IMG/VR virus record: IMGVR_UViG_3300047089_000244
Span: 96,001 to 160,000 of that record
DNA: 64,000 nucleotides
Source of the DNA: a virus
Strand: one strand, 5' to 3'
The notes under the pieces: generated by a model
Database searches by the model: none
What the model saw: the letters and a program-made list of their open reading frames with translations, nothing else
What the model was told of the DNA's origin: nothing
Translations under genes and position numbers: made by a program
Shown here: positions 6,259 through 30,106 of the stretch, piece by piece
Position numbering within the stretch: position 1 is the stretch's first letter
How the letters are laid out: each line of letters starts with the position of its first letter

Positions 6259-9200
6259 TCATGACTGAACCAATTCTAGGTCTTCTCGTTCCTTGCGCTT
6301 CTTACGAATCTCTTGTGGTGGCTTAGGCATAGCTATATCGCCACCCTCTAGATCGTCTTCGTGTTCGTCTTCGTCGGTAGCCCCTTCTGCTCGTGGCAAC
6401 CCACCCCAACTCTCGCTACTTGCGCCAGGGCTCTGCATATGCCAAACATGTTCTCGTTGCTGAAGACAACCAGGACAATCGCATGCTACACTGTAAGCAT
6501 GATCAACCCCAATGCCCTTCTGCTGGTCGCCTTCACCACGGTCGTAGGCGCTCTCCTTGGTTCCGTTCTTATCGGCGCTGCGGTAGGCCTCGCTATCGTG
6601 CTGATTGCCACCATCGTTAACTGAGCCCTCAGCTTTCATATAGTTGCGAGGTTGATCCTGCGGATAGCCGACCGGGTGACCTTCAGGGATTGACCATGAG
6701 TGATCACTGTTCTCCTCAGTGGGGTTGAGTCCATGTACAGGGCAGTCAAGCTTGTGCCCCTGATCACATGTACATCCCTCTTTCTCTGGATGAGGATTGC
6801 CTTGTGCTGGCTCTTGCATCGTGGTAGGGGGCATCATACGCGCGTCTGGATACTCGCGTGTATCCGATTGGTCTGCTCCGAAGTGCCAATCGGTATGTTC
6901 ACCTGATCGAAGACTCGGTACGGTCTGAAAGATGTGGTTAATGATGTCAGCCGGGACAGGGTGAGCCTTAGTATCGAGTCCACCGCGTGGTCGGATATTG
7001 AAGAAGTGCGCGCTTCCTTCGCCTAGCTGATATGGAGCATGGCTATCCATGTACTCCGCATGGTGCGGGGAACCTTGTACATTGACTGCCCATGTATGCA
7101 CGTCACCACTAGGCGTCACAAGGCCCTTGCCTGGGATACCCGAGCCTGGTAACCAAGCAAGTTGATGGCTGGCTTCCCTGAACGAGCGATACCCATCGTC
7201 TGCCATTTTCCCGTCAGGGCCGTCGCCCCATGTATGCTCGTCCCATTTGCCATAGCCATTAGGGGTAGCTTCCAAGTTATCCTCGAAGTCCTGCCAAGGC
7301 ATGGCGAACTCAGGAACAGAAGATGTAGGTATCACGCGCGGCTCTCCATCGATTCCCTCACCAACCGGCTTGCCTCGAAAGCCAACCACCCACCGATCTT
7401 GTGGGTCCCAACTCATATGACTCATGTATTCAGAGAGGTGATGGGGATTCCAGAACGATGAATACCCCGGCTTGCGATACTTCTCGCGCATAGTGTCAGA
7501 TATTCCATTGTCCTCGATCGGCACCGTCTCTGCGTGCTCGGTTCCCCACCAAGGCGCATCTGGATGATGCGCACGATAGTAGAGGCCGTTCTCCATCGGC
7601 AACGCCGTTAGCTGTTCGCCAGCTACTCTAGCGTACGCTGTCTGCCAGCTTTTGCTGCTCTCAGTAGGATCGGGTGAGTAACCATGAGCTTTGGCAAATT
7701 CGCGTAACTTGATAGAGCTTGGTTCCGTAATAGAAGCGTTGCCGTGACCAAGCGCGTTATTGATCGCCTGGTCGCCGGGATGTCCACTCAAAAAGAATGA
7801 GGCATGAGGATAGCCCGTAGGATCGCGCAAGCTCATCCATTGGTGATAGGGATACTGGCCTCCAAAGTTATCAATGGAGAAATCATCTAGAGTCTTATAA
7901 GGCTCGTTGGTGTACTCTGTTTCTCCATCGATTTCTCGTCCGGTCCCGCGAAGTCCTTTAGCCCAACAATTATGCATAAGCTGACCCTCCCGCTGACGAT
8001 CCTCTGGGGTCACGAGCTTATGAATTCGCCATTGATCAGGAAATTCATGAACCACTTGCGAAGTATCGGGACCCACTTGCTCAAGAGCCCGAGCCCGTTG
8101 AGGTTGAGTTAGCCCCCCTATGTGCTCGGGGAGATTCACAACTTCCTTCTCGATCTCCGACGGCTCATGCACCTTGAACTCACGAGCCCAGTCTTCCTCT
8201 AGATCGTCAGGCGCTCGATCGGTAGTCACATCCGTGTGCTTCTCAAGAAGCTCCTTCATGATGCCTATGCCTTTGGCATTATGGGAGTGGATGTTCACAC
8301 TCTTGGGCATATGCTTGCGGTGCTCATGCAACCAAATTACAAAGTCGCCGCCGCTCAGCGCATCTGGATTAATGACGACTTTACCCTCGTATTTGACTAT
8401 ACCCAAGTCATGATCAAGCGACATATGAGCGTAGTCATTATCCTTGGCGAGCTTTTTTGCTTCGCTTGCATCTTTGGCCCAATCCCAAGACTCATCAGGG
8501 GGATGTCGCGTATCGTCTAGCCAGAGTTTGTGCCTCGTAAAGGCTAGCCTAGACTGAAAATCCCAGTATTGCTCCTTGCCCTTGAATCCCACGTCCTTGA
8601 TACGAGGATCAGCCTGTTCTACGATATGGCGATAATCACGCGGGTCGTTTTCGCCATACTGATCTGGGCGTGGCTTATAGAATTTGACGCGACCTGCCTG
8701 AGAGATGTTGAAACATGTGTCCCAGAACGTCGTTGGCTGTCCTTCCCACTCGCCACCGTGGGGATCGTAGTCGCCGCCCTCATTAACCATACCTTTGGGA
8801 TGATTGAGCCCAAAGACCTTTTCAGCGTACTGAACATGGCTTGGTCTTCCGTCCTGACCGCTCGTAGGCCACGTATGTACATTGCCCTGAGGATCAAGCA
8901 TACCCTTGCCAGGGGTACCCGGCTCCCAGTTGAGTTGATTACCTTGATTATCAGAGACCTTTGTCTCTGCCCGCATCCAGGTGCGTGGAGCATCTGTGTG
9001 ATAGTCATAGCCCACGGGGCTAGATGGATCTGGGAAATCCAGAGAGTCATCATAAGTTGGTAGCGTCGGATGCAGACCGTGACATGGGCAATCCAACTTA
9101 TGGCCATCTTTGCATGTGCAATCCACATCAACGGGCTCACCATTTCGCTCTCGTAAAGCATTTGGCCATTGATCCTTTGGGTTCCAGCTATCAGCCACCT

Positions 9201-10431
9201 TAGCCGTAGGTTGCCCTATTTTCCACTCAGGGAGAATTTCTTTCTCTTGCCTCTCCCGCCAATATGATCCTGGCTCCTTTAACTCATTCTCAGCATTTTG
9301 AGTATGCTCATATGGTTCATGCAAAGTCAAAGCCTCGGGTAGAATAGAGTGAAGAGCCACTGTCATTCCTGTATCAGGGAAAATAGGATCGTCAATCGCT
9401 TCGTCAATATATGAAGGATCAACCTTCCAAAGATCTCCACGTATATCGACTCCTCCCCCTGCATCCTCAGGATGAGGGGCTAAGTAGACACCTTCAGGTT
9501 GATGTGCCACACTTCCAGCCTCCTCATTGTCGGCCTCTCCCCATGCCGGATTTAAACGGGGATGTGAAACTTGTAATCCGTGCTGCATAATGCGAGCACG
9601 ATCCTCTGTGGGAGCCATATGATAATATGACTCATCTTCGTCATTCCAGTCAGCAATGAAGTGAAGCAACTGAGACTCATATGATGGACGCACTCGTGCT
9701 ATCCTCCATGTATGAGCTCTTTTTTGATGGTCTTTCTTGTCACCCTTTACATGTTCTTGCTCTGTACCATCATCTATATCCTCTCGCGGTGGTGACACTG
9801 AGCTTATCTCTGTCTCGAAGGTAAGCTTAGGTGGCTTGAGCCCTTTTGGTAGCGAGCCATATGCAATCGTCATGTGCGGCTTGAAATCATCATGAGAATA
9901 GGGGCTGATCTCAATACCGTGATCTTCAGCGCGGTCAGCTAATTGATCGTGATGCTCCCGAATCGTATCACTATCACAAGTCAAAACTATAGCATCTTGA
10001 CCCTCTCCCTTCTCTTTAGATGGGAATGCCTTAATATCCTTGATCGTGACCGCATGTTGGTCTTCTGGCCAACCCTGCTCTTTCTCCGAGAAAACATCAC
10101 TTGTCTCAGGAGCATAAAGCATCGTGATGTGATATTCCTCAATTGGCTCAAGCTCTGTGCCCTCCGGCCAATCCTGTTCTTCAGCCCAATTATGGATCTC
10201 AATGCCGATAGGCTTAGGGATACCAAGCCCTATGTGTAACTCATCCCTCTTAGCGGTCTTGATCGAATCATTGTTAGGCGTAAGTTTTTTGATACGCCAT
10301 TCTTCGAGGCGCTCATCTTGAATGGCTTTAACGCGCTGCTCTTGTGGATTGAGAGTGTACGCACGCTCAGATGGTGTCATCTCGATTTCACTCTTATCCC
10401 ATGCACTTGCCTTGGAGGCTTGAGTCAACAT
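6259..10431 (-). CDS. 1390-aa polyvalent protein: 2H phosphoesterase, ART-like, Cys/His repeat x2, receiver-like, PcfJ-like and other modules
   Basis: HITM/HMTI; YYHMAP..RIMQHGL..GVYLA; CTCxxGHKLDCPxHG x2; LWLDDTR..SLDHDLG..IHSHN; REGQLMHNC..SLRD..PHASF. Confidence 0.8.
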   Translation of the reverse strand: MLTQASKASAWDKSEIEMTPSERAYTLNPQEQRVKAIQDERLEEWRIKKLTPNNDSIKTAKRDELHIGLGIPKPIGIEIHNWAEEQDWPEGTELEPIEEYHITMLYAPETSDVFSEKEQGWPEDQHAVTIKDIKAFPSKEKGEGQDAIVLTCDSDTIREHHDQLADRAEDHGIEISPYSHDDFKPHMTIAYGSLPKGLKPPKLTFETEISSVSPPREDIDDGTEQEHVKGDKKDHQKRAHTWRIARVRPSYESQLLHFIADWNDEDESYYHMAPTEDRARIMQHGLQVSHPRLNPAWGEADNEEAGSVAHQPEGVYLAPHPEDAGGGVDIRGDLWKVDPSYIDEAIDDPIFPDTGMTVALHSILPEALTLHEPYEHTQNAENELKEPGSYWRERQEKEILPEWKIGQPTAKVADSWNPKDQWPNALRERNGEPVDVDCTCKDGHKLDCPCHGLHPTLPTYDDSLDFPDPSSPVGYDYHTDAPRTWMRAETKVSDNQGNQLNWEPGTPGKGMLDPQGNVHTWPTSGQDGRPSHVQYAEKVFGLNHPKGMVNEGGDYDPHGGEWEGQPTTFWDTCFNISQAGRVKFYKPRPDQYGENDPRDYRHIVEQADPRIKDVGFKGKEQYWDFQSRLAFTRHKLWLDDTRHPPDESWDWAKDASEAKKLAKDNDYAHMSLDHDLGIVKYEGKVVINPDALSGGDFVIWLHEHRKHMPKSVNIHSHNAKGIGIMKELLEKHTDVTTDRAPDDLEEDWAREFKVHEPSEIEKEVVNLPEHIGGLTQPQRARALEQVGPDTSQVVHEFPDQWRIHKLVTPEDRQREGQLMHNCWAKGLRGTGREIDGETEYTNEPYKTLDDFSIDNFGGQYPYHQWMSLRDPTGYPHASFFLSGHPGDQAINNALGHGNASITEPSSIKLREFAKAHGYSPDPTESSKSWQTAYARVAGEQLTALPMENGLYYRAHHPDAPWWGTEHAETVPIEDNGISDTMREKYRKPGYSSFWNPHHLSEYMSHMSWDPQDRWVVGFRGKPVGEGIDGEPRVIPTSSVPEFAMPWQDFEDNLEATPNGYGKWDEHTWGDGPDGKMADDGYRSFREASHQLAWLPGSGIPGKGLVTPSGDVHTWAVNVQGSPHHAEYMDSHAPYQLGEGSAHFFNIRPRGGLDTKAHPVPADIINHIFQTVPSLRSGEHTDWHFGADQSDTREYPDARMMPPTTMQEPAQGNPHPEKEGCTCDQGHKLDCPVHGLNPTEENSDHSWSIPEGHPVGYPQDQPRNYMKAEGSVNDGGNQHDSEAYRSADKNGTKESAYDRGEGDQQKGIGVDHAYSVACDCPGCLQQREHVWHMQSPGASSESWGGLPRAEGATDEDEHEDDLEGGDIAMPKPPQEIRKKRKEREDLELVQS

Positions 10432-10440
10432 GGACGCCTC

Positions 10441-11514
10441 CTATGTCTTTATAATCCCAGTGCCCACCAAAAATGGAGGCATGTTTGGATGGGCTTCGCC
10501 GCCACCTGTAGCATTTGTCGTTCCGCTATTAGTCAAGATCGCGCCAGCCATCACACCACCTAGTGTACCGCTCACACTACAAGCGGGTACTCCATTGACA
10601 CTTCCGGTCGCATTATTGACTCCAGCATTCCCCCAAAGAACCTCCACTTCTCCTGATGGGTCTCTTGTGAGATAGCGTGGGGCAGATTCGGCCGAAAGAG
10701 CGTGCGTCATGTAAGACCAACCACCACGATTTTCTGGTGGTTGATGAGTGTGATCTGCGATGACACCTTTAAGTTCGCCGCTGACGGTACCTGAGACGCT
10801 CGCTGAGCCCCCTACAGGCGTCTGCGTGTGCGTATGAGCTTCGGTCTGTCCTGTAGTAAGTTTGATCGTCTCAGCGCCTTCTTTTGCACCAACAGAGCGC
10901 ACGGTCAAACCAGGACCGGCACCTGCTCCTACAGTCACACGACCGCGTGTGTCAGGCACATTGAAATTCGCCCCTTCACCGCCATATTTGTAGCCAATGA
11001 CTTTGAACAGACGATTATATTCCGCAGTCGGATAGCTTTTGCCATCTCGCAGGAGATATCCAGCCGGAGCTACATCACCTCCGAAATCAAGAAAAGCCCC
11101 GGTGGGCACCAGAGATTCAAGAACTGATTGGGTGTCATTGAAATTTTCGTCTTTGCGCAGGTCCTTTCGATAAATGACCCCTTCCCCGACACGAGGGTTT
11201 TCAATGCCTCTTCCTGATAGTGTATCCCAGTTGTAAACGGTGGCTGCAATGAAGGGTTTGCCGCCCGTGACTGTGATCGTATATGCGCCTTCTTCTACCC
11301 AACCATTGATCTTGCCATTAGAGTCGGTAGTCGGGACAATAGCTCCCGCTTCTTTCTCAGTACCATAGACAGTAACCGCAGATTCACTCGTGCGGCTTTT
11401 GATTGTGACTGTCGCGCCTACAACAGGGCGTGAAGCGAATTTACCCGAACTTTCAGGGTTTTCTTCGAGTGTATCGACAACAAAAGGGATTTGCACTCGG
11501 TTAGCTGGCATCAT
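10441..11514 (-). CDS. tail-collar domain fibre/structural protein
   Basis: VPTGAFLDFGGDVAPAGYLLRDG..YNRLFKVIGYKYG..FNVPDTRGR; HPNMPPFL C-terminus. Confidence 0.85.
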   Translation of the reverse strand: MMPANRVQIPFVVDTLEENPESSGKFASRPVVGATVTIKSRTSESAVTVYGTEKEAGAIVPTTDSNGKINGWVEEGAYTITVTGGKPFIAATVYNWDTLSGRGIENPRVGEGVIYRKDLRKDENFNDTQSVLESLVPTGAFLDFGGDVAPAGYLLRDGKSYPTAEYNRLFKVIGYKYGGEGANFNVPDTRGRVTVGAGAGPGLTVRSVGAKEGAETIKLTTGQTEAHTHTQTPVGGSASVSGTVSGELKGVIADHTHQPPENRGGWSYMTHALSAESAPRYLTRDPSGEVEVLWGNAGVNNATGSVNGVPACSVSGTLGGVMAGAILTNSGTTNATGGGEAHPNMPPFLVGTGIIKT

Positions 11515-11548
11515 CTATTACTTCAACGGACGACACTGATTTTCTTAT

Positions 11549-12037
11549 TTACGGCAGATGCACCACAATCTTTTCAATTAGCTTACCCGCCGGACCTTCT
11601 GGACCGAGCGGTCCTTGAGGTCCGATACCACCACGTAATCCCGGTGGTCCAGGAATCCCCGCTGGACCCCGTGGTCCAGGAATACCTACCCCTACGCCGC
11701 TCGGCCCACGAGGACCTGGTGCTCCTGTAGCTCCAGGAGGCCCAGAAACGCCCCGTGCGCCCCTGATTGATTGTCCTGCGGGTCCTCGCGCACCTTGAAA
11801 TCCTTGAGGTCCCTGAGGCCCTCGTGGACCGCGTATCCCGACAATCGTTACATGATTGGTCTTGTTATGAATGATCGGCTGGACGACCTTTGTGATCTTT
11901 TCAACATGCTCAATGCGAGTCTGAAGATTGTGACGTGCAGATATATCGCCTTCTAGCTTAGCAAAGGTGAGGCCAGCAATCAATGTTAGAATGGCGATGC
12001 TTGCCACGATGAATTGACGAAAACGTTTCTCGGTCAT
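11549..12037 (-). CDS. membrane-anchored collagen-like protein
   Basis: N-terminal TM followed by G-X-Y repeats. Confidence 0.8.
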
Positions 12038-12213
12038 AATTCCACAAGGTTCTGATCTCCGTTAGCTAGAGCATATCGAAGAGCATCATGAATCCGGCGA
12101 TCTTGCTCACTAGCTGTAAGTGCTGCTACTTCAAGCAAACGATACCAATCCTCCATATGCAAAGATACAGTCCTAATACTATGCCCGTTGCTGTACTGGA
12201 TAATTGTCATTGC

Positions 12214-12522
12214 TTACCCACATGAGTCGCGTTGTACTTTTTCGAGTTGCCGAAGATTAAATTTTTCATGCAAAGTGCCCTCATGAATGAGCTTTATTAG
12301 CTCCTTGTGTGACAAACCAGGGAAGCTGATTTTGGCGATTATCTTTTGCGCCTCGGGGCTAGCAGCACGCGCTACGCTTTCTCGATTGATCGCAGCGATC
12401 ACCTTGATGTTGGAACAGGTGTTAGATTGCCCCGATTTGATTTCAGCAAATCCCCATCCTACGATGAGGGAGAAAACTACCACACCGATTACGAAGAAAT
12501 AGCGAAATCCCCTATTGGTCAT
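12214..12522 (-). CDS. membrane protein with a Cys pair (spanin/lysis-like possible)
   Basis: N-terminal TM from MTNRGFRYFF; GGAG RBS. Confidence 0.55.
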   Translation of the reverse strand: MTNRGFRYFFVIGVVVFSLIVGWGFAEIKSGQSNTCSNIKVIAAINRESVARAASPEAQKIIAKISFPGLSHKELIKLIHEGTLHEKFNLRQLEKVQRDSCG

Positions 12523-12592
12523 GAGTCTCCCTAATGAATAGCGAGGACGAGATAGGTGAAAACAGTGCCAAATGTACAACCCATTGCAAGCC

Positions 12593-12883
12593 CTATTGTA
12601 TGGGTCCAGTTTTGGACGAATCGGTCGTATTTGTTCTTGAATCGTCGGAGGAATCTTGGTCCGGAAGGGGGACGCCAAGCATTCCCAGGATCAACCTTAC
12701 GAACGGATTCGTGCCATCCTTCTTGTCCCCCCGCATGAACGGGACGCTGAAGATTAGGAAAAGCCCCAGGAAGATCAAAATGGGCTGGGCCGACACTACT
12801 AGAAACGCTTGCCACACCAAGATCCCTACGCCGAGTGCTAGCAAGAGCCCGTCCCTGAAGATCGCTGTTATTCTTTGTTTCAT
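12593..12883 (-). CDS. small multi-TM membrane protein
   Basis: 2-3 hydrophobic helices. Confidence 0.6.
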   Translation of the reverse strand: MKQRITAIFRDGLLLALGVGILVWQAFLVVSAQPILIFLGLFLIFSVPFMRGDKKDGTNPFVRLILGMLGVPLPDQDSSDDSRTNTTDSSKTGPIQ

Positions 12884-12956
12884 TCATTGTTCAAAGAAGA
12901 CAGGAGGGACACCATTTCATGTATTATCCCAACGTACCACCTTTTTTTGAAGTTCT

Positions 12957-13580
12957 CTAGTGGATGATCACGGGTGTTCCAGCTTCCAAATGCCACGCGA
13001 GCCATGTAATCGCAGCATTTTCAAAGCGAATACAGCCATGAGAAGAAGCTGTTCCAATAGGTTCCGGTAGTCCTTCGCGACCATGTAAAGCAACCTGACC
13101 AGGACCTCCATCAAATTCAGTCAACACATTCGAGTAAGCCGAGGTAGCGAGCGCATAAGGTCCGGTCACTTCGCCGCGCTCAGACATGATCTCGGTTACG
13201 AAGAAATTTCCAGTGGGAGTAGGCAAACGCGGTCTTCCTACCACCACACGGTATGAGCGCAAAAGCTTGCCGCGCAAAAAAATGTGCGCCTTTCTTTGCG
13301 TTCGATTGATATAGACGGCCCATGGAGTAGTGCTAAGAGTAGTGCTAATGGCGCTAATCCATCCGGTCGCTCCATCGGGCCTGTAAGGCAGTCTAACGCG
13401 ATACCAGCCATCTCGAATCGAGATGATAGGCAGCACGGTCGGCTCGCCTGTAGCTGGCTCTGTAGACCGCACAGCACTCACGAGACGCCCACCGGGACTT
13501 GCATGAACCGGAGTGGTTCGATGCAAGCCCACAGTGGGAGTACTCGCAATAACGCTCGAAATGATGAGCGCTTTGATCAC
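12957..13580 (-). CDS. L,D-transpeptidase (YkuD family), secreted
   Basis: W.RVRLP.RP.G..GWI; PTPTG.F; VALHG ... SSHGCIRF catalytic His/Cys. Confidence 0.9.
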   Translation of the reverse strand: MIKALIISSVIASTPTVGLHRTTPVHASPGGRLVSAVRSTEPATGEPTVLPIISIRDGWYRVRLPYRPDGATGWISAISTTLSTTPWAVYINRTQRKAHIFLRGKLLRSYRVVVGRPRLPTPTGNFFVTEIMSERGEVTGPYALATSAYSNVLTEFDGGPGQVALHGREGLPEPIGTASSHGCIRFENAAITWLAWHLEAGTPVIIH

Positions 13581-13584
13581 TTGA

Positions 13585-14655: not shown

Positions 14656-14800
14656 GCCAACCTTTCGGTTTGGGATTAGAATGTACTACTTTCCAGCCAA
14701 TATAGCTGACATTGGCAAGCTTGTCAAGGATGCTGTAGGCGATGCCACCAGCAAAGCACGAGAGCATCAATCAGAAGCCAAATAGCTATGCCATCCAGGA

Positions 14801-19789: not shown

Positions 19790-19791
19790 GA

Positions 19792-21555: not shown

Positions 21556-21595
21556 TCTTGTCCTCCAATGCTCGGTAGGGTACTCATGGATCGAT

Positions 21596-21625: not shown

Positions 21626-21754
21626 AGCGTTAGAAGATCACTTCAAAGAGCCCGATGAACGCTAAGCAGACGAGCGTCTCAATGGCGAAGAGACGCACGC
21701 CTTCCTGCCATGTAGGCTGGGGGTTCCAGGAGTTCCAAAGCGCAATCAATCGCT

Positions 21755-23020
21755 TCATCGTCGTCTCACCGCCGGTCCCGCTGGTGGGACATCAGGGCGT
21801 AGTATAAGATCATTTGGCCAAAACCATCCGGTGACTCCATGTGGTTCCATTCTACCAGCTTCGGCTTGCGGACCGGCGAAGTAGACATTCACGAGCCCCA
21901 TAGGATCGGTGCCAAGAACCTCGCCGAGGCTATTTGCAGGGATTTCCTTGGTGTCGCCTGCGTTGAGACCAACTGTCTGTCCGTGGTCTGCTCGCTTCAA
22001 CTGGACCATATCGCCGTTACGGAACTGTTCCGTAGCAACACGCGAGAATGTACCGCCGGGGTTCTGCATGGGATTGAGAGGCGTCTGTGGCTTCTGTCCC
22101 GGCACCGAAACAGGATTGATGGCTGGCTGGAGAGAAGGGTCGTGTGGATATTGAGGAATCAAGCTCTGTGGTTCGGGCGCTTGACCAGGGACCGTTCCGG
22201 CAGGTTCAGGCGGGGGTGCGGTTTGATTAGGTAGTCCAGGCTTCTGTGGTCCCGGTGTACCGGCTGGTGACACCATTCCTGTACCGCCTCCCGGTACCTG
22301 CTCCATGCCCGGAGTAGGTCCCGCAGGCTGTGGAACTCCTTCTGGTGGCGCTGGAGCGCCTTCTCCGCCACCTGGTTGTGGTTCCTGCGGACCTTCAGCA
22401 CCAGGTCCTATTTCTTCATCAAGCGGCGTACCCAAAGACTGCCAGTACGTAGCAAGGACGTGTGAGCATACGCGACCCTCAAGCCGCTTCCATTGGCGCG
22501 TTCGTTGCCACGCGAACTGATCCCACTTGCATTCGCATGACCACGTTGCAATAGCCTGCGAATTCGGATCGTTACGCTGGACTTCCGTGTTGTAGGTACC
22601 ATGATCTCCTTCGACTACACCTGTGACGATTTCACGCGAGTTACGAGTGATCTTAACCTTCCCCGTTTTGATCAGACGTGTAGCCTTGGCCTGAATGTCC
22701 GGCCAGCCCGCTTCCTTGATCAAAGCCTCATCGGCATAATCCCAGTCAAGTGAATAAGAAGCTGGCTTAATACCGTGACCCTCTAACTGATTAGCAATGA
22801 TCACATAGGCATAACGACGATCAAGTGGAGTGCCACCAGAAGCGAAGATGTGCGCGGTACCTGGGACAGTGGGAAACCAACCAGCCTGCACAGCACCAAG
22901 ACGCATCGTGCGCTCAGGGAGCTTTGGGGGTTCACAGGCTAATGCAACTCGACAGTAATCCTCGAACCATGCCTCAGAGCTTTGTGTTGCAATAACGTTA
23001 GACCAATCCATTCTACCCAT
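21755..23020 (-). CDS. SWIM zinc-finger protein with Pro/Gly-rich linker
   Basis: WSCECKW ... VCSHVLA; start taken at MGRMDW, downstream of the ORF-track start. Confidence 0.75.
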   Translation of the reverse strand: MGRMDWSNVIATQSSEAWFEDYCRVALACEPPKLPERTMRLGAVQAGWFPTVPGTAHIFASGGTPLDRRYAYVIIANQLEGHGIKPASYSLDWDYADEALIKEAGWPDIQAKATRLIKTGKVKITRNSREIVTGVVEGDHGTYNTEVQRNDPNSQAIATWSCECKWDQFAWQRTRQWKRLEGRVCSHVLATYWQSLGTPLDEEIGPGAEGPQEPQPGGGEGAPAPPEGVPQPAGPTPGMEQVPGGGTGMVSPAGTPGPQKPGLPNQTAPPPEPAGTVPGQAPEPQSLIPQYPHDPSLQPAINPVSVPGQKPQTPLNPMQNPGGTFSRVATEQFRNGDMVQLKRADHGQTVGLNAGDTKEIPANSLGEVLGTDPMGLVNVYFAGPQAEAGRMEPHGVTGWFWPNDLILRPDVPPAGPAVRRR

Positions 23021-23051
23021 TATGACATAGATGGATGTCTGATCTACGTTT

Positions 23052-23366
23052 CTAGGCGTGATGCTTATGGAGGCGATGGTGATGGTGCTTCTTAATCTTA
23101 CGATGATGCTTAGGAGGATTAGAAGGCGTAATGGGAGTTGCAATTAGCACCGTAGGACCTTTTGTTTCGTCCGTTTCGTCAATTACTTCACTTTCTGGCG
23201 GTATCACGGTCACTTCGTTAGTCGTCCATTCTTCCATCACCGCGCACCCTTCGAGGCCACAGACTTCCTTAACGACAATTGGAGACGTTTCTTCTGCGTG
23301 CGCCGATGTAGCACCGAGAAGCAAGATGATAAGAGCAATACAAAAATAGAAGTACAAACGGGTCAT
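23052..23366 (-). CDS. secreted small protein with His/Lys-rich tail
   Basis: Signal peptide ending AHA; KHHRKIKKHHHHRLHKHHA. Confidence 0.65.
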   Translation of the reverse strand: MTRLYFYFCIALIILLLGATSAHAEETSPIVVKEVCGLEGCAVMEEWTTNEVTVIPPESEVIDETDETKGPTVLIATPITPSNPPKHHRKIKKHHHHRLHKHHA

Positions 23367-23561
23367 AGCTACCTTTCGTCGTCTTCTTCGAGGAGACGTA
23401 GAATCAAATCCTGACGCTCTTGCTCAGTGATCTGCTCCAACTCATCAGCGCGACGCGATGTCGTGCTGCGCCGATTGGGTCCTTCATACGGCAGTTGGAC
23501 TTGACGATGCTCGCCGAGACGCTTGTCGTCACGGGTTGTTGCGTAGGTCATACTCTGTATT

Positions 23562-25250
23562 CTACACTATGGGCTGTTCGTAGTCAAGGCCACGAACAGG
23601 GACTTCATCGTTGATCTGGCTATCCCACATAGCTTGTTGATGACCATCCCAAGCTCGTTGGTGAGCAGTGTCGTAGTCATCATGGCCTTCGGTCACGTCA
23701 AGGATCACCTGGTCGCCTTGAATCCACGAGCCCACGAACTTCTCAGGGTCCCGTAGACGATCAGCGAAGCGCTGGATAAAGGCTTCTACATCGGCTCTTT
23801 TAAAGTTATTCAACGAGAACGCCGTCTGGGTTGCAAGATCAGGAGCGAAGCCATAACGCGCATGCGGAGGTTCGCCATGAAGATTGATCGTACCCCCTGT
23901 TCCCTCGATAGCCGCCTCATAGATCCGCTGGGCCACTTGACCTACATCGATCTTGGCTTGGAAGTTCCAACGTGTATCTGGGGCATCAGCGGGTTGGATC
24001 GTAGGTGGCTCACCTATGTAACTTACCTTTGGGTCCTCGATAGCCCACTCTGGATGCAGCATGTCTCTCGGGTTTGTGAATTTGGTTCCAGGTATCGCGC
24101 GCCGTAATGCCTCCTCCGTTTTATACCCTTCATGATAACTGTGACCACCATAAGCCTCTGCGTAGCCATTCGCTCCTATAGTACCCCAAGTTGTATTTGG
24201 AGGTAGGCCTTCGCCCCATATCGGATGATATCTAAGTTGATCATGCGTAGCCTTCTCACCCTCTTCGCGCCCCATCTCGCCAAGCAAAAGATGATTGGCT
24301 GCCGGATCATATACGAACTTAGCTATCTGTCGATCATAAGGAGCGGCGGTCCTGCTCAGGGTGCCACGCGTCTCCTTCTGGTAACTATCACAGAGTTGGT
24401 CAGCCCTTACTCCATATTCGCCATACCCCCAACACTTGCCGCGACCACCTTTGTTCTTATGATACATCTTACAAGACAAACAGTTCTTGGTGGGTGAACC
24501 TTGACGCAGACGAGGAGGCTTAACCGGCGCGCCCGCTATCTTAGCTATATACTCACCGCTAGCCTGACTGATCTCTGGGAAGAGTCCTCGATTGGCAAGC
24601 ATCTTGTAAATAATATTGGACTCAGAGAAGTCCCCCTTTCCCTTCACCATGTCGCGCTGGCGCTTCTTGTGAATCGAATGCCAGAAGGCGATAGCCTGCT
24701 CAGGCTCGTACTTTAGTAACCTTTCCATCTTGTCAGCCATCTGTAATCCCCACGCATAGAAGCCACCCTGCTCCTTCTGCACATCATGAACGCGACCTCG
24801 CTCAGGTGGCACGATCCATTTGTTGTTGTCGAGATTATACCCGGAGCGTAGTCCTGGCTTGTAGAGATCACTTGGCTTGATCCCCTCACCGACTACAAAA
24901 TCCTGAAGAGGGTGCGGGGTACCAGGGAGTAATACGCCATCGAGCTTCTCTACCATGAGAGCAATCATCTCCGCGCGTGACCACTCCGGGAAGATCCTGG
25001 TATCCACAAAGAGGCTGATATCTACGTCACTGTCGTCGCTGTACTGATAAGTCGTGAGAGAGCCCGTAAGGACGAGCGTCAACCACTTCTCAACGTCCGT
25101 GTAGCCACCGTCTTCGAGAGTCTTGTAGACATGACTCTTGATCCAATGTGCATGAATAGGCTTGAGGATGGGCTTGTCTGCCGCAGGGTTGTCCCACACA
25201 CGCGCATCAAGTTCAGCGTGTATAGGGTCTAAGATATTACCGAGTCGCAT
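23562..25250 (-). CDS. 562-aa polyvalent protein: Pol-beta-type nucleotidyltransferase, 4-Cys domain and two further modules
   Basis: LTGSLTTYQYSDDSDVD; ESNIIYKML; CLSC..C..C; C-terminal GSW..ILDV..HQQAMWD. Confidence 0.8.
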   Translation of the reverse strand: MRLGNILDPIHAELDARVWDNPAADKPILKPIHAHWIKSHVYKTLEDGGYTDVEKWLTLVLTGSLTTYQYSDDSDVDISLFVDTRIFPEWSRAEMIALMVEKLDGVLLPGTPHPLQDFVVGEGIKPSDLYKPGLRSGYNLDNNKWIVPPERGRVHDVQKEQGGFYAWGLQMADKMERLLKYEPEQAIAFWHSIHKKRQRDMVKGKGDFSESNIIYKMLANRGLFPEISQASGEYIAKIAGAPVKPPRLRQGSPTKNCLSCKMYHKNKGGRGKCWGYGEYGVRADQLCDSYQKETRGTLSRTAAPYDRQIAKFVYDPAANHLLLGEMGREEGEKATHDQLRYHPIWGEGLPPNTTWGTIGANGYAEAYGGHSYHEGYKTEEALRRAIPGTKFTNPRDMLHPEWAIEDPKVSYIGEPPTIQPADAPDTRWNFQAKIDVGQVAQRIYEAAIEGTGGTINLHGEPPHARYGFAPDLATQTAFSLNNFKRADVEAFIQRFADRLRDPEKFVGSWIQGDQVILDVTEGHDDYDTAHQRAWDGHQQAMWDSQINDEVPVRGLDYEQPIV

Positions 25251-26398
25251 TCTATCTCATTTCCTCAGGTGCCATCCATGGACTGATAAAACGATTTCTA
25301 CCATCCGCATTATGCTCAACATAGAACCCCCACGCTTCTAAGGCAGCGGCAAGGGCACTCTCCGTCTCATAAGAATCTAAACAGCAAGGCCCCATCAGAG
25401 CATTATACCGAGCTTTATTTGCAGCATCGACAACATTGGAGGGTACAACGATATGAGAGGCAAAATGTGGCATTAATCCCTATTCACTATATAGAACTCC
25501 TCTATTACCTTCCAGGAGCCAAGAGGTTCTGATTCATGGGCGTGCTGAAAGCAAAGCAATTGCTCACGATCATCGGGATAGCAAACACAACCCTTGTCCA
25601 TCACAACTCGAACAGCAGCCTCACCATCCCCAAATCTACACTGGGGAATCACTTCTTTGCACCTTCTTTATGGAGAACGATTGTTTCAGTCGGAGTCTTG
25701 ATCCCAACGCAAAGTACGCGCTTCGGGAGTTTGGTGCTGGGGATCAATAATATGGATTTGGAAGAGGTCTTCAAGGGTTCCATCCTCTCGCTTGATGAAG
25801 ACGCGCTTAGGGCGCTTGACTCGATTGATATACTTGACACTAGAAGGTAAGCCTAGCATTTCTCTATCGTCACCTTGAGTTCTGCACGGCGCTCCTCAGA
25901 GGGGGGAGCCAAAAGACCAAAGTAACCATCCCGAGCCTGTAGTTCGGCATGAGTCGGTGATACAGCGCTTACCTTGAAGACGTGGATCTCGCCCGTCTTG
26001 GGGTCCTTGCAAAGAGCAATATACTCGTCAAACTTGAGGGTCGTCATGTGTTCTCAGGGTTGATTATTGCCTCAACATCACGTATCTTCTGTTCCTGGAG
26101 GCGCGTGACGCGCTCCTCAAAATCTTTCTTGACAGCCCGTAGAAGAAAGGTGGCGTGAGCATCGCTGAGACGCTCCACATCAGCCGCCGGAATCTCATCC
26201 TCGGGGCCGAAATAGATTTGTCCGTTCTGTTCCATCACGTCTCCGAAAGTGTGCAAAGTGTGCAGTCAGGTAGGATGCCATTCTCAACGTAATCATTCCA
26301 GATCGTAAGGATTATCGTCACGTCAATGATGATTCCCTGCGTCGATAGTGTGTCTGCTCGCTGGATGGCTAGTTCCAACATACGTAATCTATGCTTCA

Positions 26399-29300
26399 TC
26401 ATACCTCCGGTTGTGCGTTGATATACTCTTGCGCTCGCTGGAGTAACGCGCTCTTCTCATTGAGAGTCGGGTCCGCCACCACATCGTTAGTTAGCTGTCG
26501 TAGGATTGTACCAACTTGTGGTCCCGGTTTCAAGCCGAGAGCCAAGAGGTCGTTCCCGTTGACGCTAATCGCCGACTGGGTGGTAGGCGCTCCGGACTGC
26601 CGAGACTGCTCCACGAGTTCGCGCATCGTATCAACAGGCGTCTTATAGGACGTATCGATTCCTTTGCCCTCGTTATCAGCCGCACGGAGCGTTAAGAGGT
26701 CATCTGCCGCCTCTCCCGTCTTGTTCAGGAACTTACGAGCCCCCTTAGCACTAGAGAATTGCGGGAACATGTGCTGCGAGATCAAGTTGTGAATGTTGCG
26801 AATTTTGGTGACCGGATAGTTAAAGGTCTGGCGTAGGCGAGCCTCAGTCATATCCGCTCCGACTTTGGCGTGGTCGGCTCCCACTGGGACCCCTTCCAGC
26901 ATGCCCGCGTAGTAGTGTGTCACGCCCGTCGCTGGGTCTATCCATGCAGAAGCGGGCTTGCCCGTATCATGCAAGAGAGCAGCTAGGCGCAGGTCTGGAT
27001 CTTTGGAAGCGCGCGAGACATTATCGAACACATTTAGGCTATGCTCACCTAGTGAATAATTATGGTGAGGGTTTTTCTGATCATAGTCGAAGTTATTCGC
27101 TAGCTCAGGGAAGAGATGTTTGAGTACGCCTGTTTCCTGAGCCAAGCGGAATGCGCCCGCTGGATTAGCGCTCGTCAGAAGCTTCTCAAGCTGTTGCTTT
27201 AGCGCATCAGGTGACTCCTGATCCAGACGGTGAGCGTACTCTTCCATCTCCTTACGCGTCTGCTCGTCCGGAACCAGTCCGTGGCGGGAGTGCATCGTGA
27301 GGGCTCGGACCAAACGTGTTGGGTCCTCATCGAATGATCCTGGGTGAGTAGTCCGTAAAGTATGGGACTCAATGTCTCTAGCTCCTCCGTAGGGATCAAG
27401 CAATCGCCCCGACGAGTCAAGATCAACGGCCATAGAATTGGCCGTAAAGTCTCGTCGCTGTAAGTCTTTCTCGATTGGGAGATGATGATCGACTGTGATT
27501 TTTCCTTGTCCACGGGTTCCTCCTGATTCGTATGTGTCGGTGCGAGGAAGTGCGATCTCGACCTCTTGGCCTTTGGTATGATAGCGGTAGACGCCAAAGC
27601 GCTTACCCGTAAGATCCACGCGGCCCGGTAGATGCTCCAAGATGTTATTCACGTCCTCGGGCGGAATACCCGATACCATAAGATCAATGTCCTTAGGCTC
27701 CTTCTGAAGGAGAGCATCTCGCACGGCTCCACCAACGACATAGACCTTACCGCCAGCTTCTTTAAGAGCTTGTGAGGCCGTCCAAGCAGCACCATCAGCA
27801 GCCGTAATCGAACGGATGTATGTGCCTACGTCCGCCGAAGCAACCTTGTGCTTTTCTCCTGTCTGGCTTTCCATTTCGAGGCTCGTGATCTCTAGTCCTG
27901 GGTGACTATAGTACCACAACTGCATCATGTGATATGTGGAGAACGGGATAGTAGTCGTCGTATTGATGACCATCTTACCCTTTGGTTCGTAGTATCCCTC
28001 CACGATGCCACCTGGTGTAAACTGCCCCATGATGTCTGGAGTACGCATACCGGGGTGGCCTACCGTGATATAGTCCTTTTCGATGTCGTAGATGAAGGGG
28101 ATTGGAGCCTGAAGCAAGTCCTTTCCTTCTTTGCCGCCTGCGGCCTCGAAGTGCCACCCCGCTTCGTTCCTCCATCCAGGACCAATCGGTTGTAGGTGTT
28201 CTGGAAGTTGAGAAGTTCCGTCTCTCTGTGCCTGCACGAACTCCTTAACCCGGTTCAAGTGAGATACGTCCTCAGGAAGATCATCCTCTGTGATGTATTG
28301 GCCCCCGTGTGCGCCTATTTCTGTAGCGTGCTTGCCACGAGGGTCATAGGAGAACGAAGCATGTGGCCAATTGTTGGGATCTCTCAAAGAGAGATTCATG
28401 TCCGCCCCCATTACATGCTGACTAGAAGGATCGTAAACCATATCGTTTTGATCCTCTGATGTGCCCATACCTCCCCAGCAATGGTGCATCATGTCCCCCT
28501 CTCTACCAACCTCATTCCAGCTAGGCAAATGTCGAATAGTCCACCCATCAGGAAATTGATGAAGAATCTCCGTCTGCTCTGGTCCATGTACCTCTTCGAG
28601 TTTTGTCTTAAACCGTTGTTGTTGAGGAACGGTCATTCGTCCGAAGTGCCATTTGTCTGATGAAACAAAAGCCCCCATCACAGGAATAGCCGTAGGTGTG
28701 ACGTTGCGCGGTCGCAGTGGCAATGGCTCGTCTTTGTCTTCGATGGTCGGGAAGTGTCCGTCATCGATCGGCGCAGCTTTGGGGTCCTGGTGATCCTGCG
28801 TATGCATAACGTAGGCTTTGAAATCTGGTAGCGTCTCGTTGCAATATGGGCAGGTGAGTTGACCTTGGGGCTCGCCATCAAAAGCTTTGCCCGGTTCTGC
28901 TTCTGGATCGCCCTTGTCGTATGTGGTCGGCCACTCCTTGTTCTTGATACGATCGTTCATGTCCGTGCCACCTGGGTACTCTGCAATGCGATACCCAAAG
29001 TCATCTGCCCATTCGATTAGTCCCGGCAGAGCAAACGGATTTGGAGGACGGTTGAAACTAGCTGTACGACCTACTATCTCGATCTCATCGTGATTACCCC
29101 AGAACGGGCGACTGCTGAGCTTAAGCTTACCCTCGCGCCATCCATACCAGTATGACTTCTTGGCTCCAAAATCATCATGAATTGGTTGACCACTGCTATC
29201 TACCAAGCCACCCCACTTCCATCCAACTTGCTTGCTGTAATCCTTCATCATTTTTACTAGCCCGCGCAAGCCGATGTTGCTCTCGACACTCCAGAGAGCA

Positions 29301-30106
29301 TCACGTCCGCGCACATTGACATACCCAACGGCCATCGGGCCGTTATGATCGGGAGCGATCTGAGCCTCTTCTGCCATCTGTTCGTGGTCGTCTACGGGTG
29401 AGACTTTGAACTCGCCGTTGCCGAAGATGAACTTATACTCATGCTCAACAGGTTCCTCCATCGAGAGATTGAGGTCGTCTATCACCGGGTCGTGGAAATC
29501 GCGTTGATTGAATTCCTCTTCTGCCTGCGGGCCTTCGCCAGGATACGCGTCGGAACCCGATCCACCGGAGTCGGCTTGCTTCAGAATCTTACCCTCTAGA
29601 GCGGCATTAGCACGTTCGGCAAATAACTGTGATCGCTGAGTGATGTTTGGCGACTGTTCTAGGTCTTCCCAGTCACGTTTGTCCTGTCCTGGTTGAGGAT
29701 CACTCTGAATGCGGAAGTCGCGATAGAGAGGATTGGTTGCATGCGTGTAGACAATTGGGCCTGGCCTATGGCGCATCTGTTCAGGCTCATACTCATAGGG
29801 CTCATCCTCCGCGTCTTGTGGGCGCGGCGTACCTTTGACAGGAGTGAAAGCATACTGGTCGCCTGTGAGATCCACGACGTAATTCCTATCTGGGCTCACC
29901 CAGAAGAAGTGACCTTCCTTCTGGCCAATATGTCCGCCGCCGAGCTTGCTCTGAAGCCACTTAGATGTAACGTAACAATGTCCAGCGCTCGGCTGTGGAT
30001 GACCGCGAGAGTCCTCGGGGCGTGTCTCATCTGACCATGCGTGTTCTGCTGCGCGGCGTAGCTCGTGCAGTTTCTCTTGTGTGATCGTGTCTGGATCAAA
30101 TCCCAT
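26399..30106 (-). CDS. cca: 1235-aa polyvalent protein ending in a class II CCA-adding enzyme with HD domain
   Basis: VVGGAVRDALL..KDIDL, DLQRRDFTANS, DEDPTRLVRA, LAALLHDTGK; N-terminal GHCYVT..GG..HF, C2H2 finger, PcfJ-like module. Confidence 0.88.
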   Translation of the reverse strand: MGFDPDTITQEKLHELRRAAEHAWSDETRPEDSRGHPQPSAGHCYVTSKWLQSKLGGGHIGQKEGHFFWVSPDRNYVVDLTGDQYAFTPVKGTPRPQDAEDEPYEYEPEQMRHRPGPIVYTHATNPLYRDFRIQSDPQPGQDKRDWEDLEQSPNITQRSQLFAERANAALEGKILKQADSGGSGSDAYPGEGPQAEEEFNQRDFHDPVIDDLNLSMEEPVEHEYKFIFGNGEFKVSPVDDHEQMAEEAQIAPDHNGPMAVGYVNVRGRDALWSVESNIGLRGLVKMMKDYSKQVGWKWGGLVDSSGQPIHDDFGAKKSYWYGWREGKLKLSSRPFWGNHDEIEIVGRTASFNRPPNPFALPGLIEWADDFGYRIAEYPGGTDMNDRIKNKEWPTTYDKGDPEAEPGKAFDGEPQGQLTCPYCNETLPDFKAYVMHTQDHQDPKAAPIDDGHFPTIEDKDEPLPLRPRNVTPTAIPVMGAFVSSDKWHFGRMTVPQQQRFKTKLEEVHGPEQTEILHQFPDGWTIRHLPSWNEVGREGDMMHHCWGGMGTSEDQNDMVYDPSSQHVMGADMNLSLRDPNNWPHASFSYDPRGKHATEIGAHGGQYITEDDLPEDVSHLNRVKEFVQAQRDGTSQLPEHLQPIGPGWRNEAGWHFEAAGGKEGKDLLQAPIPFIYDIEKDYITVGHPGMRTPDIMGQFTPGGIVEGYYEPKGKMVINTTTTIPFSTYHMMQLWYYSHPGLEITSLEMESQTGEKHKVASADVGTYIRSITAADGAAWTASQALKEAGGKVYVVGGAVRDALLQKEPKDIDLMVSGIPPEDVNNILEHLPGRVDLTGKRFGVYRYHTKGQEVEIALPRTDTYESGGTRGQGKITVDHHLPIEKDLQRRDFTANSMAVDLDSSGRLLDPYGGARDIESHTLRTTHPGSFDEDPTRLVRALTMHSRHGLVPDEQTRKEMEEYAHRLDQESPDALKQQLEKLLTSANPAGAFRLAQETGVLKHLFPELANNFDYDQKNPHHNYSLGEHSLNVFDNVSRASKDPDLRLAALLHDTGKPASAWIDPATGVTHYYAGMLEGVPVGADHAKVGADMTEARLRQTFNYPVTKIRNIHNLISQHMFPQFSSAKGARKFLNKTGEAADDLLTLRAADNEGKGIDTSYKTPVDTMRELVEQSRQSGAPTTQSAISVNGNDLLALGLKPGPQVGTILRQLTNDVVADPTLNEKSALLQRAQEYINAQPEV

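Follow-up and report, generated by a model that had tools for sequence, protein, structure and literature searches.

Three large proteins encoded by an uncultured phage with a 170 kb genome belong to the polyvalent proteins described by Iyer et al. (2017), and in this phage lineage the joints between their modules are marked by a tripeptide, [KR]-[V/L/T/I/Q]-[A/S], that is conserved and precedes a small residue. The tripeptide also closes the variable leader of the major capsid protein and is in strong excess in the protease/scaffold protein, so it is most likely the recognition site of the head-maturation protease. The three proteins are probably split into separate enzymes, perhaps inside the capsid; we infer both the cleavage and the loading from these comparisons.

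Three polyvalent proteins built from shuffled modules

The analysed window is a stretch of 64,000 nt (positions 96,001-160,000 of IMGVR_UViG_3300047089_000244), to which coordinates refer unless noted otherwise. The initial annotation described three of its ORFs as strings of swappable enzyme modules joined by [KRH]-x-A linkers. All three are present at 6259-10431, 23562-25250 and 26399-30106, and each encodes a multi-domain protein (A, B and C below). Pfam and PHROG matches, shared or repeated modules and AF2 domains reveal disparate domains within single chains:

6259..10431 (-), A, 1390-aa polyvalent protein with about 10 modules
9832..10200 (-), 2H phosphoesterase/Acb1-like domain, A aa 78-200 (PF23474, E = 3e-7; phrog_755)
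8242..8529 (-), cREC receiver domain, A aa 635-730 (PF20274, E = 9e-18)
7684..8124 (-), MHNCW module, A aa 770-916, homologous to C aa 487-627
23562..25250 (-), B, 562-aa polyvalent protein, an NTase-like head module and three more modules
24543..25250 (-), head module, B aa 1-236, with a G-S...D-V-D Pol-beta NTase signature
26399..30106 (-), C, 1235-aa polyvalent protein
29786..30070 (-), YunG-like domain, C aa 13-107 (PF24585, E = 2e-6)
26438..27745 (-), tRNA nucleotidyltransferase (CCA-adding) head, RNA-binding and HD domains, C aa 788-1223

Protein A begins with an N-terminal helix, followed by the 2H/Acb1 domain (within an AF2 folded domain at aa 63-210), a further module, a Zn module, a GKG repeat and the cREC domain. 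After cREC come the MHNCW module, a further module, a second GKG repeat, a Zn module and a conserved C-terminal tail. The MHNCW module is 34% identical to its counterpart in C (BLASTP, E = 6e-12). The head module of B is widespread, with more than 386 homologues, and elsewhere occurs joined to Fic, 2H, cREC and many others; its Pfam Polbeta/MTPAP-like matches are sub-threshold (E about 0.1). Protein C consists, in order, of the YunG-like domain (AF2 domain at 1-170, pLDDT about 90), a folded module, a Zn ribbon, an MHHCW module, another folded module and a CCA-adding enzyme with an HD domain, the last matching PF01743 (2e-25), PF12627, PF01966, PF13735 and phrog_2244 (1e-61).

The module swapping is real. 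Both the order and the combination of modules vary among homologues of all three ORFs, which we compared as families of 26, 61 and 120 proteins with shuffled modules (differences in module order and content were seen among 25, 60 and more than 120 homologues). Such mosaic, reshuffled architecture is a feature of polyvalent proteins, as is the presence of disparate domains (2H/Acb1, cREC, NTase, CCA-adding enzyme and others). Their modules, including the zinc and repeat modules, are independent counter-defence and RNA-repair units. No family match to an embedded peptidase was found in whole A, B or C or in their single modules. Outside the CCA and cREC domains, no homologue of the three proteins was detected in Cluster C or in any cultured phage.

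A conserved tripeptide at the joints

Overall, [KRH]-x-[AS] is not enriched in the three ORFs by the count that the initial annotation proposed: observed and expected counts are 24/26.6, 7/10.3 and 23/21.9. A count test would wrongly have led to rejection of the idea, because the signal is positional. When breakpoints of shuffling were defined with no reference to the motif, [KR][VILT]A occurred within ±6 aa of them 44 times against 10.2 expected in the 26-protein family, 61 against 14.0 in the 61-protein family and 113 against 15.4 in the 120-protein family, a 4- to 7-fold enrichment for which shuffle P values overstate significance, since homologous junctions are not independent events. Control motifs were flat, at about 1x, in all three families. 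In A, B and C themselves, 7 of 19 motifs lie near breakpoints, where 1.5 are expected (P = 4e-4). The junctions are as follows:

10252..10260 (-), KTA, A aa 58-60, breakpoint peak 59
9697..9705 (-), RIA, A aa 243-245, W-RIA-R.RPPYEAEL kept in 9 homologues
9193..9201 (-), KVA, A aa 411-413, breakpoint peak 410
8953..8961 (-), KVS, A aa 491-493, breakpoint peak 496
8542..8550 (-), RLA, A aa 628-630, before cREC, from homologue junctions and a low-pLDDT linker (AF2)
8116..8124 (-), degenerate junction HIG, A aa 770-772, breakpoint peak 772
7621..7629 (-), candidate junction RVA, A aa 935-937, HSP ends at 927-948
7171..7179 (-), REA, A aa 1085-1087, before the second GKG repeat, breakpoint peak 1085
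24534..24542 (-), KIA, B aa 237-239, strongest breakpoint peak, 238
24345..24353 (-), RTA, B aa 300-302, breakpoint peak 299
29573..29581 (-), KQA, C aa 176-178, end of AF2 domain 1-170
28982..28990 (-), RIA, C aa 373-375, breakpoint peak 375, end of AF2 domain 220-375
27839..27847 (-), KVA, C aa 754-756, directly before the CCA enzyme, breakpoint peak 757

Ten motifs in the three ORFs were first listed from the letters. IKTA57, AKVA410, TKVS490, AKIA236, SRTAA299 and HKVAS753 all fall no more than 6 aa from motif-blind breakpoints, as does RIA373. SRLA627 and LKQA175 are outside these seven and are backed instead by a weaker breakpoint or an AlphaFold domain end; WRIA242 is a conserved junction in 9 homologues, with no objective peak. 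The candidate ARVA934 likewise has no objective breakpoint peak. The RIA373 junction of C was absent from the earlier motif list and was found in this follow-up.

The contexts of individual junctions illustrate the shuffling. Specifically, [KR]xA-DSWNPKDQWP (KVA411 of A) is preceded by at least 4 different upstream contexts and [KR]x[AS]-SHQLAWLPGS (REA1085) by at least 6, while ...WMRAET-K[VT][AS] (KVS491) leads into more than 6 unrelated modules. In B, the motif stands directly after ...GEYIA in 66 of 119 homologues and is followed by 47 distinct downstream contexts. In C, the motif at RIA373 joins varying partners on both sides, K754 and A756 are nearly invariant among homologues, and proteins that start at the module after KQA176 carry a leader of 1-5 aa and then [KR]x[AS] in all 10 cases. 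Homologues of A have [KR][VTLI]A where A has HIG770, one of several degenerate joints in this phage (the others being WHFG/ADQ at 1187, WHFEA/AGG at 651 and KID at 433).

Mapped onto AlphaFold models, as the initial annotation had proposed, KQA176, RIA373, KVA754, KTA58 and RLA628 occupy linkers or the ends of domains. KVA754 lies at the end of domain 660-757 of C, KQA176 opens a disordered stretch (176-218) and KTA58 is inside a low-pLDDT linker ahead of the 2H domain. Free-standing cREC paralogues, such as the one at 3138-3509, have no junction motif; thus, the motif lies outside the domain folds.

A three-residue motif that occurs about every 50 aa will place some copies near any boundary, and the overall counts in the three ORFs and the portal do equal expectation. 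Regardless, chance is a highly improbable explanation given the positional enrichment in three families against flat controls and the excess, out of sample, in protease/scaffold proteins including that of Cluster C (below); the breakpoint enrichment and the 7 of 19 motifs in A, B and C effectively refute it.

The tripeptide might instead be a signature of module boundaries in chains that stay intact, kept as a set of hinge or capping residues, as a docking motif for a partner or as a scar that travels with the module cassette. A GDAYPG module at the N terminus keeps the motif after a 1-5 aa leader in 10 of 10 proteins, a position with no evident need for cleavage; no embedded peptidase was detected; and many polyvalent proteins, for example N4 vRNAP and ArdC, are delivered uncut (reviewed in Iyer et al., 2017; PMC5512222). 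However, selection acts on amino acids and not on DNA: no DNA-level consensus able to serve as a recombination signal exists at the junctions, and the motif toggles between K and R and between A and S while acidic or reversed versions, used as control motifs, are excluded. A hinge or scar would also leave unexplained the motif in the capsid leader and the roughly threefold excess in protease/scaffold tails. We consider intact chains unlikely.

The same motif in head-maturation proteins

A head-maturation protease had been predicted to lie elsewhere in the genome, and one does, at genome positions 44864-47383, outside the window. Its sole family-level match is phrog_18299 'head maturation protease' (E = 2e-21); Pfam S78 (PF04586) and S77 (PF03420) gave no match at E <= 1, and a 22-sequence profile returned no PDB match. 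H111, S185 and H211 are invariant in the protease of 22 relatives, and several relatives carry inteins directly after its GFSMG sequence, as is typical of active sites. We take the order and spacing of these three residues to resemble the His-Ser-His triad of herpesvirus assemblin, a lead and not a test, and no sequence or structural match to assemblin was obtained. Assemblin maturational sites read (V/L/I)-x-Ala-Ser, are cut after Ala with Ser next, and occur in scaffold-linked substrates; unlike the junction motif, their consensus has no basic residue at P3.

The protease/scaffold protein ranks first in the whole genome for the motif (13 against 3.9 expected). Across 33 relatives, the scaffold tails hold 279 motifs against 89 expected and the protease part 152 against 49, and the homologous protease/scaffold of a cultured mycobacteriophage, Cluster C gp98, shows the same excess (15 against 6.5, P = 0.002). 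In about 45 relatives, the major capsid protein has a variable 5-12 aa leader, then R-x-A and then the conserved core; in this phage the leader has RQV in place of R-x-A. The junction motif is thereby tied to head maturation, as first proposed, through the capsid leader and the protease/scaffold.

The accompanying argument from the portal falls away. Motifs cited there are no more conserved than their flanks, QRTAAS is kept in only 2 of 12 relatives, and the overall [KRH]-x-[AS] count equals expectation. For the head-region proteins, said to carry the same motif, a narrower post-hoc version is over-represented in two of the three with moderate conservation, whereas the claimed motif itself is not. 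The genes that bear on this and on the sections below are:

36816..39401 (-), portal protein
39454..42446 (-), three proteins between portal and terminase, of which h3 is 41439-42446
10441..11514 (-), Collar-type tail fibre gene, 9 nt upstream of A
4728..5987 (-), BCS1-like AAA ATPase downstream of A (Pfam AAA at 8e-20, BCS1_N at 1e-6)
62340..63053 (-), ClpP-like protease (Pfam CLP_protease, E = 4e-26)

A C-terminal D-x-x-L-F tail is common to the protease/scaffold, a 1832-aa head-module giant, h3 (which ends DDSLFL, as the protease/scaffold does) and Cluster C gp98. Judged by sequence, this tail is a candidate capsid-targeting or capsid-binding signal, the only one seen.

Where the chains might be cut

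The preferred reading is that the head-maturation protease would act in trans on the polyvalent chains, cutting at the tripeptide joints, probably after Ala/Ser, to yield separate enzymes. Since prohead proteases as a rule work within the head under assembly, the chains would have to enter the prohead, be cleaved in it and pass with the DNA into the next host. We regard this full course of events as quite possible, though short of probable. Protein A is encoded in a tight operon behind the tail-fibre genes, with synteny kept in relatives, where the BCS1-like AAA ATPase always adjoins the A homologue; its late synthesis would suit a role in the following infection, along the lines argued by Iyer et al. 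(2017; PMC5512222).

Other observations weigh on the opposite side. The reading is weakened by the absence of the D-x-x-L-F tail from A, B and C and by the position of the B and C families, which in relatives are located among nucleotide-metabolism genes and not among virion genes. Also against it are the degenerate joints, the RQV capsid leader, the lack among relatives of any fusion of A, B or C modules to the head-maturation protease, and the missing S78, S77 and PDB matches of the protease.

Alternatively, cutting at the same motif could take place in the cytoplasm, with products that act in the same infection and are never packaged. This strategy would resemble that of RNA-virus polyproteins, giving equimolar enzymes from one gene, and the cutter could be free protease/scaffold protein, a host protease or the phage ClpP-like enzyme, a candidate for any cytoplasmic processing. 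The motif evidence is silent on where cleavage occurs, the missing tail and the gene neighbourhoods of B and C suit a cytoplasmic site, and CCA-adding and RNA-repair enzymes are ordinarily cytoplasmic. But ClpP degrades processively and makes no cuts at defined sites, the gene for A lies within a late tail-fibre operon, and the motif is common to the capsid leader and scaffold tail, substrates whose cleavage within the prohead is established in phages that have been studied (T4 and HK97). Cytoplasmic cutting seems to us rather improbable, more so than intact chains.

Relation to known systems

Polyvalent proteins were defined by Iyer, Burroughs, Anand, de Souza and Aravind (2017, J Bacteriol, PMC5512222), who draw an explicit analogy to RNA-virus polyproteins and propose release via embedded peptidase domains (MPTase). 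Proteins A, B and C share with that set the 2-15 disparate conflict-related domains per chain, the occurrence in portal/terminase phages, the predicted packaging and delivery with DNA, and an overlap of domains (2H, ART-like, NTase, GNAT, Fic, NUDIX). They differ in having no detectable embedded peptidase and in the lineage-specific tripeptide at their joints, which is shared with the likely substrates of a protease acting in trans. The junction motif is not described in PMC5512222, where the word 'linker' does not occur, and a CCA-adding module is not mentioned ('CCA', 0 occurrences).

In T4, IPI-III and Alt are synthesised late, enter the prohead, undergo trimming by the prohead protease gp21 at a short motif and are injected together with the DNA (PMC5512222). 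Each is a single protein that bears a conserved N-terminal capsid-targeting sequence and is cut once after L/I-x-E, whereas the motif here is basic-x-Ala/Ser and recurs at the joints of multi-enzyme chains; a conserved leader of the T4 type, ending in L/I-x-E, was not found, the leaders being 1-9 aa and unconserved. The phiKZ-like cleavage motif ends in Glu. In phiKZ-like giants (SPN3US gp245, phiKZ gp175), many head-internal proteins are cut by the prohead protease at a short motif and ejected into the host (PMC5694885, PMC7411985, PMC10052503). Unlike A, B and C, these substrates are not known to be chains of shuffled enzymes.

A broader view, which we hold tentatively and with more doubt than prohead cutting itself, is that the lineage may use a programmable capsid-cargo code in which any module flanked by [KR]-[VLTIQ]-[AS] could be spliced in, loaded, released by the maturation protease and injected. 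The virion would then deliver a dozen or more ready enzymes before any phage gene expression, a cocktail of signal-degrading 2H/Acb1, ART-like modules, NTase and a CCA-adding tRNA-repair enzyme, with NUDIX, Fic and GNAT in relatives; modules at degenerate joints would be ones deliberately left fused. Polyvalent proteins occur widely among phages, and their processing and delivery are still predictions. If the preferred reading is right, the junction code would let sequence alone predict the mature enzyme boundaries of hundreds of uncharacterised modules, would make this the first tRNA CCA-repair enzyme proposed as injected cargo and might point to a way of packing enzymes of choice into phage capsids. 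It would also provide a testable three-residue junction rule for a large soil-phage clade and its cultured relatives, the Cluster C mycobacteriophages (Bixzunavirus), whose portal and capsid protein are 41% and 54% identical, respectively, to those of this phage. The Cluster C proteins considered are gp89, gp97, gp98 and gp100 of YemiJoy2021, and giant proteins flank the portal there as they do here.

Module composition of the polyproteins

Three open reading frames (ORFs) had been described as strings of unrelated domains, and this description is borne out by their domain assignments, by modules that are duplicated or held in common, and by reshuffled homologues.

6259-10431, minus strand: 1390-aa polyprotein
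23562-25250, minus strand: 562-aa polyprotein
26399-30106, minus strand: 1235-aa polyprotein

Specifically, the 1390-aa protein carries an Acb1/2H phosphoesterase domain (aa 78-200), a cREC receiver domain (aa 635-730) and two internal duplications, one of a zinc module (~411-493 and ~1187-1272) and one of a 'GKG' repeat (~498-627 and ~1088-1186). The GKG repeat is found also in a 545-aa protein and in an 1832-aa giant of the phage head module, and another module (770-916) is common to the 1235-aa protein (487-627), which additionally contains a YunG-like domain and a complete CCA-adding enzyme with HD domain. The 562-aa protein starts with a module bearing a G-S...D-x-D nucleotidyltransferase signature whose Pfam matches are sub-threshold, and which occurs in >386 proteins, where its fusion partners include Fic, 2H, cREC and many unknown modules. 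Pfam searches with single unassigned modules returned nothing above threshold. Module order and combination vary among the homologues of all three proteins, some of which add NUDIX, GNAT or Fic domains. We are confident that the three ORFs encode polyvalent proteins as Iyer et al. 2017 (PMC5512222) defined them.

The last ~40 aa of the 1390-aa protein (…IRKKRKEREDLELVQ; positions 6259-6380) are kept at the very end of nearly every homologue. This protein ends at LVQS; those of relatives (loci L104 and L105) run ~20 aa beyond (…LHSxAW…SRLDT), overlapping the neighboring AAA gene.

The motif marks module junctions by position

The initial annotation placed a short motif, [KRH]-x-[AS], at the module boundaries and proposed to test its enrichment by count. 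No such enrichment exists in the three ORFs or in the portal protein. Relative to composition-preserving shuffles, the 1390-, 562- and 1235-aa proteins contain 24, 7 and 23 motifs versus 26.6, 10.3 and 21.9 expected, and the portal contains 12 versus 13.5. A different picture emerges when position is considered. Boundaries were set blind to the motif, at positions where the endpoints of all-against-all BLAST HSPs peak in each homologue family, and the narrower form [KR][VILT]A was counted within ±6 aa of each peak.

Table. Narrow motifs near objectively defined boundaries
Family; proteins; motifs near boundary; expected
1390-aa; 26; 44 of 87; 10.2
1235-aa; 61; 61 of 323; 14.0
562-aa; 120; 113 of 241; 15.4

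The control motifs [DE]x[AS], [KR]x[GP], [KR][VILT][DE] and reversed [AS][VILTQ][KR] occur near boundaries at about expectation in the three families, and A[VILT][KR] is raised in the 1390-aa family only. When the three proteins of this phage are taken alone, 7 of 19 narrow motifs fall at objective boundaries versus 1.5 expected (P = 4e-4). Homologous junctions are non-independent, so that probabilities from the shuffles set an upper limit to significance. The argument is carried by the diversity of partner combinations and by out-of-sample tests. There is little doubt that the observation is real as a signal of position, and of position only.

The motif is a property of the joint and not of any one module. 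The sequence '...WMRAET-K[VT][AS]' is followed by >6 unrelated modules, and '...GEYIA-KTA' by 47 distinct contexts. Conversely, the module starts '-SHQLAWLPGS', '-ADQWDTREYP', '-DSWNPKDQWP' and '-EYPGG' each have the motif before them while the upstream modules differ. Free-standing cREC paralogues begin directly at the domain, without the motif. The first residue of the junction is K (64%) or R (36%); V, L, T, I or Q comes second, A (82%) or S (18%) third, and a small or acidic residue fourth. Several joints in this phage lack the motif (HIG at 770, WHFG|ADQ at 1187, WHFEA|AGG at 651 and KID at 433), and homologues carry [KR]-x-[AS] at the positions of these degenerate joints. An N-terminal leader followed by the motif was considered as a general rule and rejected, since it holds in 10/10 cases for one module and in 29/101 for the N-terminal module of the 562-aa family.

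AlphaFold modelling of the 1235-aa protein (residues 1-790, mean pLDDT 68) places KQA176, RIA373 and KVA754 (numbers give the position in the protein) precisely where confidently predicted domains end. The AF2 model of residues 1-1100 of the 1390-aa protein is poor, with a mean pLDDT of 46, and can be used only near the 2H and cREC domains, beside which KTA58, RLA628 and HIG770 lie in low-confidence linkers. A Foldseek search with the 790-aa model gave only weak, uninformative matches to gelsolin-like repeats (TM < 0.1).

Could the junctions instead be explained at the nucleotide level, for example by a recombination site or an SD-like pause? The junction Arg codon is the rare AGG or AGA in 5/6 cases versus 14% in these window genes overall (P = 3e-4; junction motifs at 8542-8550, 9697-9705, 7171-7179, 7621-7629 and 24345-24353). 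This AGR preference is absent in homologues, which use CGC; there is also no consensus among the nine-base junctions and no codon bias at the motifs of the protease tails. Both candidates were rejected, and an explanation of this kind is unlikely. The bias probably reflects recent toggling between K(AAG) and R(AGG) under selection for a basic residue at the protein level.

The motif in head proteins

The phage contig comprises 169,966 bp, of which the window covers bases 96001-160000, and its assembly is apparently circular. At least 79 related loci are present among IMG/VR viral contigs, and a megablast search with the portal-terminase stretch as query revealed no cultured phage. The head module is not part of the window; coordinates marked 'genome' are those of the whole contig.

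36816-39401: portal, 39-41% identical to portals of Cluster C mycobacteriophages and of Rhodococcus phages E3 and Finch
39454-42446: three proteins between portal and terminase
42483-44615: terminase large subunit
genome 42922-44040: major capsid protein, 54% identical to gp100 of the Cluster C phage YemiJoy2021
genome 44864-47383: 839-aa protein
genome 49420-54918: 1832-aa giant

A cement-like protein also belongs to the head module. Elsewhere, a small free-standing ORF (genome 16212-16580, plus strand, outside the window) matches portal residues 314-405 with 39% identity and the Cluster C portal with 35%.

The motif had been noted in the portal as well, and this part of the proposal fails: QRTAAS is kept in 2/12 relatives and QKTAS in 9/12 (flank identity 0.66), neither being conserved better than its surroundings. 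Two of the three proteins at 39454-42446 exceed expectation for the narrow motif (5 versus ~1.2 each, a post hoc comparison); its conservation there is only moderate. Across 7-13 relatives, motif conservation in the portal and in these three proteins is no better than in the flanks.

Three independent observations tie the motif to head maturation. First, the N-termini of ~45 distinct capsid proteins from relatives begin with a leader that varies in sequence and length (5-12 aa), followed in most (~85%, by eye) by R-x-A and then by the conserved capsid core '[VI][AS]S[AG]DYE'. The Cluster C capsid protein has G-R-F-A ahead of 'KASDDY', and this phage and its closest kin carry the leader variant R-Q-V. 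Second, the highest excess of [KR][VILTQ][AS] genome-wide among proteins >= 150 aa belongs to the 839-aa protein (13 versus 3.9). Third, the corresponding proteins of 33 relatives (34-85% identity) hold 279 motifs versus 89 expected in their divergent scaffold-like tails and 152 versus 49 in their protease parts, with control motifs at ~0.7x to 1.4x. Similarly, in cultured YemiJoy2021 the homologue gp98 has 15 motifs versus 6.5 expected (P = 0.002), and the capsid protein has 5 versus 1.7.

The head maturation protease

The initial annotation predicted a prohead protease elsewhere in the genome, and the 839-aa protein supplies it. Its N-terminal part matches phrog_18299, 'head maturation protease' (E = 2e-21), and the gene is the single copy of its kind genome-wide. 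The protease domain takes up about aa 1-300 (genome 46484-47383, minus strand). Pfam S78 and S77 gave no match, and neither did PDB sequences, whether queried with a single sequence or with a profile. H111, S185 and H211 are invariant among 22 relatives. Several relatives carry inteins directly after 'GFSMG', an insertion point typical of active sites. The intein-bearing genes, some with a LAGLIDADG endonuclease, include L024:1809-5432 and L060:5583-9266, in which the intein sits right behind the invariant GFSMG, as well as L033:5172-9140 and L077:6118-9327.

Established prohead proteases (T4 gp21, HK97 gp4 and phiKZ gp175) yield a self-cleaved scaffold that is rich in motifs and a capsid protein whose leader is trimmed. 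We take the junction motif to resemble herpesvirus assemblin sites, (V/L/I)-x-A|S, and the His-Ser-His spacing presumably resembles the assemblin triad; both serve as leads only. On balance, we favor the view that the junction motif is the site of the head protease, and we lean slightly toward the chains being cut.

The tail of YemiJoy2021 gp98 (aa 640-757, L007:24584-24937) matches the Phage_L5_gp82 domain (Pfam E = 2e-23), so that in this cultured relative the head protease carries a fused globular module.

Possible packaging and injection

Trimming of injected enzymes by a head protease is established for T4 and phiKZ-like phages. The novel element here is the junction code itself, a defined basic-x-Ala/Ser sequence. 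It recurs in the capsid leader and in the scaffold within this lineage, and it punctuates multi-enzyme chains without their own peptidase, one of which has a CCA-adding tRNA-repair enzyme as its last module. Iyer et al. 2017 (PMC5512222) published the idea that polyvalent phage proteins undergo packaging, processing and injection; they proposed release by embedded peptidases and described no junction motif. Our literature search found no paper describing junction-motif polyproteins.

That these chains are packaged and injected is possible but somewhat doubtful, and the evidence is mixed. A gap of 9 nt separates the 1390-aa gene from a Collar-type tail-fibre gene upstream of it, and at its other end the gene overlaps its downstream neighbors. 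Four relatives keep the order YkuD, collagen/Collar fibre, polyprotein, BCS1-like AAA ATPase; this placement and its synteny count for packaging, as does the GKG repeat common to the 1390-aa protein and the 1832-aa giant. Moreover, counter-defence enzymes made late would be of use only if carried into the next cell (PMC5512222).

Other observations count against packaging. A C-terminal D-x-x-L-F is present in the 839-aa protease/scaffold (DSALFGR), the 1832-aa giant (DADLFLGI), the protein at 41439-42446 (DDSLFL) and Cluster C gp98 (DASLFI; L007:22667-26776). It is a plausible candidate for a capsid-binding or targeting tail, and it is absent from all three ORFs. In relatives, dNTP- and RNA-metabolism genes surround the 562- and 1235-aa families. 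No relative fuses polyprotein modules to the protease, the extra length of long protease genes being due to inteins. The phage also encodes a ClpP-like protease (62340-63053), adjoining an RNA ligase gene (61138-61884). We found no literature on virion content or on the mature N-terminus of the Cluster C or E3 capsid protein.

A protein with a YkuD-type L,D-transpeptidase domain is encoded at 12957-13580 amid collagen-like tail-fibre genes, a layout kept in relatives. The BCS1-like AAA ATPase (Pfam AAA and BCS1_N; 4728-5987) is encoded directly downstream of the 1390-aa family gene, which it often overlaps in four relatives, and could act as an unfoldase or loader for the polyprotein.
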